Of a stretch of 64,000 bases of DNA, positions 27,042-30,588 are shown in pieces (within the stretch, counting starts at the first letter, position 1; every line of letters begins with the position of its first letter). The notes below the pieces were generated by a model. That model did not search any database and had not been told where the DNA came from. It was given only the letters and a program-made list of their open reading frames with translations. The DNA lies in the NCBI RefSeq assembly GCF_003334305.1, contig NZ_QOWS01000002.1, one strand, 5' to 3'. The position numbers and the translations under genes were made by a program. Origin of the DNA: Escherichia coli (GTDB lineage Bacteria > Pseudomonadota > Gammaproteobacteria > Enterobacterales > Enterobacteriaceae).

Positions 27042-30000
27042 TTACTCAACAGGTTGCGGACGCGCAGGAGCGGCAGAGGCATGATGCGTTGCCGTATGAC
27101 CACCTGCGGCACCTTTACCTTCGAAGGCAAAAGTAGGGCGCTGCCAGTCACTGTGACGCGGTGCCTCCGGAACATATTCCGGTGCCGGAGCGCGCGTCAT
27201 TGGCGCGGTAGCGTGGTTATGCTCAACGGTGATCTCTGGTTCAACCGCGGCTACCGTTTCAACTTCTGCTGCGACTTCAGCGACGACTGGCGCGGCAGGT
27301 TGAGCAACAACTTCAGGTTCAGCAACCACAACCTCAGCAGTTTCGGCAACTTCTTCAATATCTGCCGTCTCTTCCTGCGGTTCAACCACCGGTTCTGCGT
27401 GTTCTGCGACTTCCTGGGCTACGGCAACATCAGACTCGGTAATCACCTGCGGCTGTTCAGTTACCGCGGCGGCAATCACTTCAGGATGCGTCGTTTCAAC
27501 CACTTCCGGTTGCGGTTCGGCAACCGGTACGGGGGCTTCTACGACTTCAGCCATTTCTTCAACAACTGGCGCGCTAACAACAGGTTCGACAGCGGCGGCG
27601 ACAGGGACCTCAGTCACCATCGGCTGCACTTGTACTTCTTCCTGTTCGCGCTGCTCTTCAACTTGTACATCTTGCGGACGTACAATTGGATAGCGGATCC
27701 AGACTTTGCCAGAGGCCAGTTCCGGAGACGCGCACGCTACGGTCAACGGCATTGGCGACTGGGTTGGATAACGCTCGTCACGATAGCGACGACGACGCTG
27801 ACCACTCACGCGCAGGTGACGAGGCGAGCGGCGAGAACGACGCGGCATGCCACCGTTGTCACGGTTATCAGCATTGTTCTCTTCTTGCTGTTCTGGTGCA
27901 GTTTGCGCTACGACTGGCAGCGGGACTTTCACCAGTTCTGTGCGTGGAGCTGGAGCTTCCTGAACAATTGGTTCGGCAGCGGCAGTTTCTTCAACCACCG
28001 GTGCGACTACCGCTTCTTCGGCTACGCTTTGCTCGTAACGCACTTTCTGATTGAGCTGACGCTGTTTACGACGCGGCTGAACCGGACGTACACGTTCTTC
28101 CTGTTCGGTTTCCTGAACAGATTGCTCTTCAACATTCAGCGCCTTCGCTTCTTGTTGCGCCTGACGTTTATCATCGTTACGGCGGCGGCTACGTTCACGA
28201 CGCGGCGCTTGCTGCTCGTCGGTGGTACGTGCTTTTTCCGTTACCTCAGCTTGCTGACGGCTCTCACGCGTCTCGGCAGTCTGCTGCTGTGCCTGGCGAC
28301 GATTACGACGGTTTTCTTCGCGATTATCGCTGCCTTCAGTACGTTCACTACGGGTGTCGCGGCGCTCATTACGGTCACGGCGGTTGTTCTGACGAGGCTT
28401 GCGACGATCCTGTTGACGTTCCGGTTTCGCTTCTGCTTTCGGTGCTGGTTGCTCGGTCGGTTTGGTTTCTTCACTACCGCTGAACAGCGCTTTCAGTGCG
28501 CCGAAGAAGCGGCTCAACAGCCCAGGTTGTGCAGGAGTTGCTGGTGTTGCCGGTGCAGCTTTCGGTGCTGGGGCTACAACAGGCGCGGCAGGTTCAGCTG
28601 GCGTTGGCGCTGGCGGCACATCCGGCATGGCAAAGGTTGCCAGCGCAGGTTGTTCCGGACGCTTACGTTCAGCGAACTCTTCTTCAGACGGCAGCGCCAT
28701 CGCTTCTTCATGCAGCTTCGGCAGCATGTAGCTTAAGGTTGGGGTTTCTTCCCCTTTACGCACGCGCAGCACGTGGTAGTGCGGGGTTTCCATCTGATCG
28801 TTTGGCACAATTACACAGCGCACACCGTCCTGACGAGTTTCAATGGCATTTACCGCAGAACGTTTTTCATTCAGCAGGTAAGAAGCGATTGGCACAGGAA
28901 CAATGGCGTGAACTTCCTGGGTGTTCTCTTTCAGCGCTTCTTCTTCGATCAGACGCAGAATAGAGAGCGACAGCGATTCGTTGTCACGCACGGTGCCAGT
29001 ACCAGAACAACGCGGACAAACGTGATGACTGGATTCACCCAGTGATGGGCTCAGGCGCTGACGGGACATTTCCAGCAGGCCAAAGCGAGAAATATGGCTG
29101 ATTTGAATACGCGCACGGTCCTGACGCACCGCTTCACGCAGACGGTTTTCTACCGCACGCTGGTGGCGTACAGGCGTCATGTCGATGAAGTCGATAACAA
29201 TCAGGCCGCCGAGGTCACGCAGGCGCAGCTGACGAGCAATCTCATCGGCAGCTTCGAGGTTGGTGTTAAACGCGGTTTCTTCGATATCGCCGCCGCGGGT
29301 CGCGCGTGCGGAGTTGATGTCGATGGCCGTTAACGCTTCGGTGCTGTCGATAACAATGGAACCACCGGATGGCAGACGGACTTCACGCTGGAAGGCGGAC
29401 TCGATCTGCGACTCGATCTGGTAGTGGCTGAACAGCGGGATCTCGCCGGTGTACAGTTTGATTTTGCTGCTGAAATCCGGGCGACCTAATGCAGCGATAT
29501 GCTGACGTGCCAGTTCGAGCACTTTCGGGTTATCGATAAGGATTTCGCCGATGTCCTGACGTAAGTAATCGCGGAATGCGCGAACGATTACGTTGCTCTC
29601 CTGATGAATCAGGAACGGAGCCGGGCGGCTTTCAGCGGCTTTTTTGATGGCTTCCCAGTGTTTCAGACGGAAGCTTAAATCCCATTGCAGCGCCTCAGCA
29701 GATTTGCCGACGCCAGCGGTGCGCACGATAAGCCCCATGCCTTCCGGCAGTTCAAGGCTCGCCAGTGCTTCTTTTAATTCGGTACGGTCGTCGCCTTCGA
29801 TACGGCGAGAAATGCCACCCGCGCGCGGGTTGTTCGGCATCAGAACCAGATAGCTACCCGCCAGACTGATAAAGGTGGTTAATGCCGCGCCTTTGTTGCC
29901 GCGCTCTTCTTTATCGATCTGAACAATGACTTCCTGACCTTCACGCAACACATCTTTAATGTTGGGACGACCATGAGCACTGTAGTTAGCAGGGAAATAT

Positions 30001-30227
30001 TCGCGGGCAATTTCTTTTAGTGGGAGGAAACCGTGACGTTCAGCGCCGTAATCAACAAAAGCAGCTTCCAGACTCGGTTCAATGCGGGTGATTTTACCTT
30101 TGTAGATGTTTGCCTTTTTCTGCTCGTGCCCTGGACTTTCGATATCCAGGTCATACAGACGCTGCCCATCTACAAGGGCAACGCGCAACTCTTCCTGCTG
30201 AGTTGCGTTGATTAACATTCTTTTCAT
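27042..30227 (-). CDS. rne: Ribonuclease E
   Basis: 1061 aa; N-terminal [30 protein letters not shown] (S1/catalytic half); C-terminal half is Arg-rich, Pro-rich and acidic low-complexity scaffold. Confidence 0.97.
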
Positions 30228-30588
30228 CGTAACTTACTCATTATTCTTACATTGACGACTAAGCTGCGGGCAAAGTAACGCCTTTCCGGGTGTGAACCGA
30301 TGGCCTCGTGTCTAGTCGCGTCGCCAACCTCACGGTTATCGTCAGCTCAAAGAGGCGCAGAGTGTCGGTTGCCCGTTTTTCATGCGGAAAAACAGCGCAA
30401 TTATCAAAGAAACAGACTGGGTATTACTCTCCAGAAATATTTCCATCTACCGGTAAGGACTGCAACCCGCAGCCCGCTAACTGCCTGAAAGATCAATACG
30501 TCTTACGCCATTGCTGCGTGGATGATCGGTCGGGCAAAATGGGTTATTCCGTAAAATTTCTTGTTTTAACAAGGATGGACACGGAAAC
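30228..30588 (-). promoter_or_regulatory. rne 5' untranslated leader (autoregulatory region); upstream boundary approximate
   Basis: About 570 bp without coding sequence between rne and the divergent rluC; E. coli rne is known to carry a roughly 360-nt structured leader that mediates RNase E autoregulation. Confidence 0.5.

Follow-up and report, generated by a model that had tools for sequence, protein, structure and literature searches.

The window, the whole 64,000-nucleotide stretch of Escherichia coli DNA analysed here, carries the gene for ribonuclease E between flgL and rluC. The gene, its two halves and the nearby terminators are as follows.

26887–26915, plus strand: intrinsic terminator of flgL, a 12-bp stem then T8, upstream of the antisense ORF described below
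26999–27022, minus strand: intrinsic terminator of rne, a hairpin then a T-run
27042–30227, minus strand: rne, ribonuclease E, 1061 amino acids plus stop (ORF list, translation and NCBIfam match)
27045–28640, minus strand: low-complexity C-terminal scaffold half of rne, codons 530–1061
28641–30227, minus strand: catalytic N-terminal half of rne, codons 1–529 (TIGR00757 match)

The rne product scores 2010.3 bits against the NCBIfam equivalog NF008074 (cutoff 908), with residues 1–1061 aligned to profile positions 1–1068. The TIGR00757 Rne/Rng domain accounts for residues 13–425 (570.7 bits). At the DNA level the gene is 100% identical to the annotated rne of E. coli strain 165, and a match to it is present in 5426 of 5426 complete E. 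coli genomes. The gene order flgL–rne–rluC is annotated in strain 165, where the DNA is identical, as well as in 8 other E. coli genomes. E. coli K-12 has the same gene, of the same length (1061 amino acids), between the same neighbours. The differences from K-12 are strain-level substitutions only: the DNA of the C-terminal half (27042–28740) is 98% identical, and the gene is matched identically by strain 165 and by further isolates, commensal or clinical, not by K-12. The region is an ordinary E. coli rne locus, and as such already known. The coordinates given in the initial annotation were all reproduced, namely those of rne, those of the antisense ORF and the end point 30588, exactly where the Rfam rne5 match begins.

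The two halves of the protein differ in composition and in rate of change. Mean entropy in 40-residue windows is 3.13 bits in the C-terminal half of RNase E, compared with 3.72 bits in the N-terminal half. Within Escherichia, codons 1–498 have no amino acid changes except one versus E. albertii; the C-terminal half has a sense dN/dS of 0.09–0.21 in the Escherichia comparisons. RNase E consists of a conserved catalytic N-terminal half joined to a fast-evolving, compositionally biased scaffold half. The scaffold half (532 residues) contains 79 Ala, 76 Glu, 64 Val, 61 Pro, 54 Arg and 44 Gln residues, with 11 Leu and 19 Ser. The C-terminal half had been described as repetitive and rich in Arg, Pro and Glu. 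Its low complexity is borne out, the enrichment is better stated as Ala, Glu, Val, Pro, Arg and Gln, and the DNA is barely repetitive: we found micro-repeats of 2–3 copies and families 60–70% alike, and nothing stronger. A motif of 13 residues (570–582 of the rne product) is presumably the membrane-targeting helix. Arg-rich segments lie at residues 608–624 and 796–821, and we take these to have the functions usually assigned to them.

Upstream of rne, the following leader and promoter features were located.

30228–30588, minus strand: rne 5′ untranslated leader, 361 nt between the P1 start and the ATG
30547–30586, minus strand: leader hairpin hp1, nt 3–42 (minimum-free-energy fold and Rfam consensus)
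30481–30537, minus strand: leader hairpin hp2, nt 52–108 (single-sequence fold, Rfam and RNAalifold)
30498–30519, minus strand: hp2 core, nt 70–91 (22 nt), nearly invariant
30264–30472, minus strand: multibranched leader domain hp3, nt 117–325, closed by a long-range helix
30595–30624, minus strand: rne P1 promoter, TTGCTA, an 18-nt spacer and AATAAT with an upstream TG
30589–30799, no strand assigned: AT-rich divergent promoter region, from the rne P1 start to the rluC ATG, 211 bp, GC 0.39–0.43, outside the UTR
30308–30682, plus strand: chance ORF of 124 codons opposite the leader

The Rfam rne5 family (RF00040) matches 30252–30588 on the minus strand over its full length (model positions 1–333 of 333), with 260.1 bits against a gathering score of 180 (E = 1.4e-81). 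The match begins at the P1 start, 30588, and ends 24 nt before the rne ATG on the same strand. The rne 5′ UTR is known to be 361 nt long (PMC10989929, PMC1716169). The initial annotation had equated the roughly 570-bp non-coding stretch with the autoregulatory 5′ UTR. The known UTR is indeed there, but it takes up 361 of the 572 bases of the rne–rluC gap (30228–30799); the remaining 211 bp hold P1 and a region shared with rluC. The −10 element of P1 stops 7 nt upstream of the RNA start, and P1 is the sole σ70-like match on either strand in 26700–30900. Additional upstream rne promoters are attributed to Ow et al. (2002) in PMC10989929.

A structure prediction of the leader had been proposed as a check, and hp1, hp2 and hp3 were recovered both by folding and by Rfam. 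In an RNAalifold analysis of 21 Enterobacterales leaders, hp2 covaries, with compensatory changes in 4 of its pairs. Its core is invariant in these leaders bar one base in two sequences, and the helix closing hp3 (columns 119–129 with 337–348) is kept. The rne5 gathering score is reached at 14 of 16 other Enterobacterales loci. Stability alone was rejected as a mark of a structured leader; the minimum free energy of −103 kcal/mol has a z score of only −0.66 versus shuffled sequences. The case for a structured leader is made instead by the covariance-model match together with covariation. Feedback through the leader, dependent on RNase E, is established for K-12, according to PMC10989929, PMC1716169 and PMC10303841 and the work of Diwa et al. 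(2000) and Schuck et al. (2009) cited there. The same sources identify hp2 as the RNase E sensor (PMC1716169; Schuck et al., 2009, via PMC10303841). On the mechanism given in this literature, RNase E would bind hp2 and hasten decay of its own mRNA, giving feedback control. As with the 361-nt autoregulatory UTR of K-12, the leader here is a full-length rne5 element with hp1, hp2 and hp3. The ORF that runs antisense to it (30308–30682) has a codon log-odds score of −0.19 bits (z = −5.6) and no NCBIfam match.

The strand opposite the C-terminal half of rne is open over a long distance.

27039–28736, plus strand: open frame of the antisense ORF, stop to stop
27054–28736, plus strand: 560-codon shadow ORF, antisense to rne and in codon alignment with it, TTG start; in our reading not a gene
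28734–28736, minus strand: rne codon 498 (TTA, Leu), the complement of which, TAA, terminates the antisense ORF
27686–28054, 28229–28483, 28462–28731, 28496–28963 and 28773–29045, plus strand: shorter ORFs over rne

The 560-residue ORF and several shorter plus-strand ORFs over rne had been noted before and were all found again. The ORF is in codon alignment with rne, since 27054 − 27042 = 12, a multiple of 3. In this configuration (frame −1), antisense stops arise only opposite TTA, CTA and TCA (10.1101/724807). A TAA, TAG or TGA in the aligned frame would, on this rule, be possible only opposite these codons for Leu and Ser. The rne gene has 10 TTA, CTA or TCA codons in total, all between codons 5 and 498, with codon 498 the last. 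Codons 499–1061 specify 15 Leu and 21 Ser, none of them by TTA, CTA or TCA. The share of Leu and Ser is 36 of 563 here, compared with ~17% in the other genes of the window. The antisense frame thus meets no stop between codon 498 and a point past the end of rne, because the scaffold half is poor in Leu and Ser and because 0 of the 36 such codons is TTA, CTA or TCA. Two other causes were considered and rejected. Removal of A-ending codons by a high GC3 does not apply, as GC3 is lower in the C-terminal half (0.46 vs 0.56), and the reduction has the same direction in nearly all of 80 Enterobacterales species. True DNA repeats are likewise discounted because only weak repeats are present.

We compared the length of the open run with simulations. 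For an average protein of the same length, the longest aligned antisense run has a median of 142 codons and never exceeded 506 in 20,000 simulations; the observed run would be extreme there. With the RNase E sequence encoded by window codon usage, the median rises to 242 codons and P(≥563) is 0.006. When the synonymous codons of rne itself were permuted, the median was 322 codons and P for 563 was 0.049. Most of the length is due to composition, which typically gives a run of 240–320 codons; the full 563 needs a coincidence of 0.5–5% besides. For a gene picked out of thousands because of its long run, such a probability is only mildly unusual, and the coincidence does not extend beyond E. coli proper. 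In the same antisense frame, a second gene of the window (43729–45162) has a run of 374 codons. The initial reading of the ORF as a composition artefact is supported and can be refined to composition plus 0.5–5% luck. The ORF fails the coding tests based on conservation of the open frame, selection, codon usage, families and homologues.

All 8 E. coli strains sampled have an open antisense frame, which carries little weight given a strain divergence of only ~2%. In three other Escherichia (two divergent genomes that were deposited under the name E. coli, and E. albertii) the frame contains 1, 6 and 5 stops. Across Enterobacterales, 76 of 80 species have an interruption of this frame inside the C-terminal half. 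Stop avoidance was not found in these 80 species; the trend is the opposite. Their C-terminal halves contain 376 TTA, CTA and TCA codons, against 254 expected from the usage in each gene's own N-terminal half, and fully open frames number 4 where 9.2 ± 2.6 are expected.

Purifying selection on the antisense translation was not seen in dN/dS, dS or dSN/dSS within the Escherichia comparisons. In three deeper comparisons the antisense frame has a dN/dS of 1.0–1.25, as opposed to 0.09–0.10 for the sense frame. Sense dS is not lower in the C-terminal half of rne than in the N-terminal half. In an OLGenie-style estimate, dSN/dSS, the cleaner ratio in this antisense frame, is 0.7–1.4 with intervals that span 1. 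The other ratio, dNN/dNS, is 0.3–0.4 with intervals below 1. We rejected purifying selection as the source of this value, since it is equal in the comparisons with E69 and E. albertii, whose frames hold 5–6 stops. The signal is put down to codon positions: the NS class consists of sense first-position changes, which are conservative (V/I, A/T), and NN includes the second position.

The codon usage of the ORF is that of an antisense frame. Its log-odds score is −0.09 bits per codon compared with 0.32 ± 0.09 for 52 window genes (z = −4.5), a value inside the range that 52 other genes show in their antisense frames. GC at the three codon positions is 0.46/0.49/0.79, which mirrors the sense strand (0.79/0.48/0.46); for genes, the values are 0.59/0.42/0.56. 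The comparison of codon usage and GC3 with genes, one of the checks suggested at the outset, thus marks the ORF as non-genic (z = −4.5; GC3 0.79 vs 0.56). The translation is 13% Phe, 15% Arg, 4% Cys, 3% Trp and 0.4% Lys. A second suggested check, a homology search, gave no Pfam or NCBIfam matches to the product and 5 matches among 5.8 billion proteins. For three of these the contigs were fetched, and each lies antisense to rne in a frameshifted or truncated assembly. Of the remaining two, one proves to be an rne chimera and the other, P0003, is 96% identical.

What might favour a real gene is a set of local signals. The first in-frame ATGs are at 27081 and 27084, and an AGGAG (27066–27070) lies 10 nt upstream of ATG 27081, which by sequence makes a start site that could be used. 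One could suppose that E. coli alone has here a young protein-coding gene that overlaps rne and is translated from ATG 27081 by means of this AGGAG. Besides the Shine–Dalgarno-like motif and the double ATG, this would draw on the open frame in all 8 E. coli, a length in the 0.5–5% tail given the RNase E sequence, and the dNN/dNS of 0.3–0.4. The frame is nevertheless broken in the nearest relatives and most of the order, in a family without stop avoidance; strains that diverge by ~2% make 8 intact frames weak support. Antisense dN/dS is close to 1, with no slowing of synonymous change in rne. Codon usage and amino acid composition are non-genic, and no homologues were found away from rne (with one of the 5 matches, P0003, untraced). 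On the plus strand there is no match to a σ70-like promoter in 26700–30900, and the strong flgL terminator, which would be expected to block read-through toward the ORF, lies upstream. Nor did we find a specific report in the literature of a gene antisense to rne or of antisense translation there. We consider such a gene extremely improbable. The same very low probability attaches to low-level translation of the frame into a very young de novo protein, specific to E. coli, rich in Phe, Arg, Leu and Cys, and overlapping an essential gene.

The plus strand might instead give rise to a non-coding antisense RNA over the 3′ half of rne that modulates rne mRNA, the ORF being incidental. Pervasive antisense transcription is described for E. 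coli in 10.1101/2023.03.23.533988; no report concerning this locus itself was found. Against this, the same absence of a plus-strand promoter-like site in 26700–30900 and the preceding terminator (26887–26915) apply, and an Rfam search of this strand returned nothing at E ≤ 1. The rate of synonymous change in the C-terminal half of rne equals or exceeds that in the N-terminal half, so that no extra constraint is visible. An antisense RNA of this kind is very unlikely. We infer that this frame goes unexpressed and yields no functional protein. Almost certainly, the 560-codon frame is a shadow ORF, and rne with its known self-regulating leader is otherwise ordinary. What we report, that is identities, anatomy, statistics, absent conservation and absent constraint, leaves knowledge of RNase E and its feedback leader unchanged.

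Long antisense ORFs are known from other genes. Those antiparallel to dnaK in frame −1 entered Pfam as PF10712 (Moshensky & Alexeevski, 10.1101/724807). They have in common with the rne ORF the stop rule, a probability formula that uses the numbers of Leu and Ser (10.1101/724807), and a lack of negative selection on the antisense translation. However, the dnaK ORFs recur across many genomes, with a slight resistance to synonymous change, whereas the rne ORF is uninterrupted in E. coli proper alone, and its family shows the opposite of stop avoidance. The main cause also differs, being in rne the depletion of Leu and Ser in a disordered, low-complexity domain. Like the rne ORF, ano of E. coli O157:H7, an overlapping gene with experimental support, is embedded antisense in an annotated gene (PMC5960689). 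It is short (186 bp), in frame −3, and was found by RNA-seq and Ribo-seq signals; the rne ORF fails every sequence-based coding test.

The rne ORF offers a quantified warning: a disordered domain that is poor in Leu and Ser can keep the aligned antisense frame open for 1.7 kb. A P of 0.5–5% for 'stop avoidance' in one genome vanishes upon looking at relatives. Gene callers choose the antisense frame when rne is frameshifted or cut at a contig end, and spurious proteins enter the databases as a result.

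The rne gene lies in the gene order flgK-flgL / rne / rluC-yceF-yceD-rpmF. Its product is covered end to end by the NCBIfam RNase E equivalog (2010 bits versus a cutoff of 908). Across 27000-30850 (3.85 kb), the sequence has 100% identity with several complete E. coli genomes in which rne and rluC are annotated, and a match to this segment is present in 5426 of 5426 complete E. coli genomes. The features of the rne region are all either established already or artefacts of a familiar type. The main features are:

26887-26915, strong flgL terminator followed by T8, upstream of the antisense ORF
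27042-30227, − strand, rne ORF of 1061 codons (ORF list and translation)
27054-28736, + strand, antisense ORF opposite rne, 560 codons with a TTG start
30589-30799, divergent promoter region of rne and rluC, outside the 361-nt UTR

The initial annotation regarded the antisense ORF as a composition artefact accompanied by shorter open stretches. The ORF list reproduced it exactly and contained five shorter + strand ORFs opposite rne. An offset of 12 bases between position 27054 and the first base of the rne stop codon puts the antisense ORF in register with the rne codons. In this register, antisense TAA, TAG and TGA are the complements of sense TTA, CTA and TCA and, therefore, only Leu and Ser codons can close it; the identical stop rule and formula were used in bioRxiv 10.1101/724807. 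All ten TTA, CTA or TCA codons of rne fall at codons 5-498, and the last, TTA-498 (28734-28736), terminates the antisense ORF. Codons 499-1061 include just 15 Leu and 21 Ser codons, drawn from CTG, TTG, CTC, AGC, AGT, TCT and TCG. The C-terminal half of the protein is of low complexity and rich in Ala, Glu, Val, Pro, Arg and Gln; the DNA encoding it is only weakly repetitive. The observation is confirmed and the artefact reading supported, with two refinements. One is the UTR length (361 nt, not 570). The other is mechanism: the frame is open through frame-specific Leu/Ser depletion and modest luck, the latter confined to E. coli.

The longest aligned antisense run within 1061 codons was simulated under three models, with a threshold of 563. 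Using average window composition, the median was 142 and 563 was reached in 0 of 20,000 simulations (maximum 506). The RNase E protein with window codon usage gave a median of 242 (P = 0.006 for 563), and permuting the synonymous codons of rne itself gave 322 (P = 0.049). Calculated analytically, the chance of 563 was 0.005 under window usage and 0.027 when the N-terminal usage of rne itself was applied. Thus, most of the run length comes from composition, leaving a coincidence of 0.5-5% to account for the rest. This is unremarkable for one gene among thousands, noticed for its long shadow ORF. Such ORFs are common in the window, as shown by the second longest codon-aligned antisense run, 374 stop-free codons opposite a 477-codon gene (43729-45162, + strand).

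By codon usage the antisense ORF is unlike genes. It scored −0.09 bits/codon against window usage, versus 0.32 ± 0.09 for 52 genes (z = −4.5); the same genes read in the aligned antisense frame gave 0.07 ± 0.08. Its GC1/2/3 values (0.46/0.49/0.79) mirror the sense strand (0.79/0.48/0.46). In its translation, Phe accounts for 13% of residues, Arg for 15%, Cys for 4%, Trp for 3% and Lys for 0.4%. The translation had no match in Pfam or NCBIfam and only five among 5.8 billion predicted proteins, none pointing to a homologue outside rne loci. Three were traced to contigs: each occupies the flgL-rluC interval on the strand opposite rne, and the rne in question is either frameshifted or truncated at the end of the contig. 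The fourth, P0004 ('ribonuclease E, partial' in NCBI/UniRef; 760 aa, 7 member sequences), consists of RNase E residues 1-576 fused, at an RFFG common to both parts, to codons 739-552 translated antisense. This implies that some E. coli records contain an inversion within rne or are assembly chimeras there. The fifth, P0003, is 96% identical and is not among the three traced.

Nei-Gojobori estimates for rne codons 499-1061 gave a sense dN/dS of 0.09-0.21, and antisense values of 1.19, 1.25 and 1.01 in three deep comparisons. The C-terminal half had a sense dS of 0.38-0.54, not below the 0.27-0.38 of the N-terminal half; by this comparison, no second constraint slows synonymous change in the C-terminal half. 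With a second estimator, sorting sites by their effect in both frames, dSN/dSS was 0.7-1.4, with intervals including 1, and dNN/dNS was 0.3-0.4. The latter was rejected as a signal of antisense coding. Since it is equally low against lineages with a broken frame, its source is the difference between positions 1 and 2 of the sense codons.

Eight E. coli genomes, including K-12, O157:H7 and ST131, have the antisense frame intact, but since their DNA for the C-terminal half (27042-28740) is 97.4-99.1% identical, this says little. Interrupting codons occur in the nearest outgroups: 5 in E. albertii, and 1 and 6 in two divergent genomes submitted under the name E. coli. At least one TTA, CTA or TCA occurs in the C-terminal half at 76 of 80 species-representative Enterobacterales loci. 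Across the 80, such codons in the C-terminal halves number 376, versus ~254 expected from each gene's own N-terminal Leu/Ser usage, and 4 frames are fully open versus 9.2 ± 2.6 expected. The family shows the opposite of stop avoidance, consistent with a GC3 that is lower in the C-terminal half. Selection does not maintain the coincidence. In nearly all 80 species (L002-L081), the C-terminal half falls short of the catalytic half in GC3 (e.g. 0.44 versus 0.56). Together with the excess of rare TTA, CTA and TCA, this suggests that codons are under weaker selection in the disordered scaffold.

No σ70-like site was found on the + strand across 26700-30900, and a literature search found no report of an rne antisense gene. 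The only feature in favour of translation is AGGAG at 27066-27070, 10 nt upstream of an in-frame ATG-ATG at 27081. A 124-codon GTG ORF antisense to the rne leader (30308-30682, + strand) has no family match and non-genic codon usage (z = −5.6).

The ~570 bp upstream of the rne ATG had been taken as the autoregulatory 5′ UTR. The known leader is indeed there: Rfam rne5 (RF00040) matches 30252-30588 (− strand) over the whole model, at 260 bits versus a gathering score of 180. However, its first base lies 361 nt before the ATG, in agreement with the UTR length published in PMC10989929 and PMC1716169, and ~570 bp is the whole rne-rluC intergenic region. The sole promoter match in the region, TTGCTA-18-AATAAT, ends 7 nt upstream of that base. 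The leader, of ordinary folding energy (z = −0.66), folded singly into hp1 (nt 3-42), hp2 (nt 52-108) and a multibranched hp3 (nt 117-325). An RNAalifold analysis of 21 leaders likewise recovered hp2, four of whose pairs carry compensatory changes, and the helix that closes hp3. The 22-nt hp2 core (30498-30519) was invariant in this alignment bar one base in two sequences. According to PMC1716169 and PMC10303841, binding of RNase E to hp2 leads to feedback.

The rne5 gathering score was reached at 14 of 16 other Enterobacterales loci; Raoultella terrigena (L030) and Tatumella morbirosei (L066) fell below it. In Klebsiella michiganensis (L019:1016-1476) the match spans 461 nt versus the usual ~337, and hence the leader has a ~125-nt insertion. 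Between rluC and yceF, a REP-like palindrome (31791-31863) matched Rfam naRNA4 (RF02564) on both strands, at 54.5 and 53.4 bits, slightly below the gathering score of 59.5. The flgL-rne spacing is ~200 bp in the window and other sampled strains. E. coli strain 980-2 (NZ_CP127324.1; L085:1283-2067) has a GNAT-family acetyltransferase and a DUF1778 protein, a toxin-antitoxin-like pair, inserted in this interval, and its rne is 4 codons shorter.
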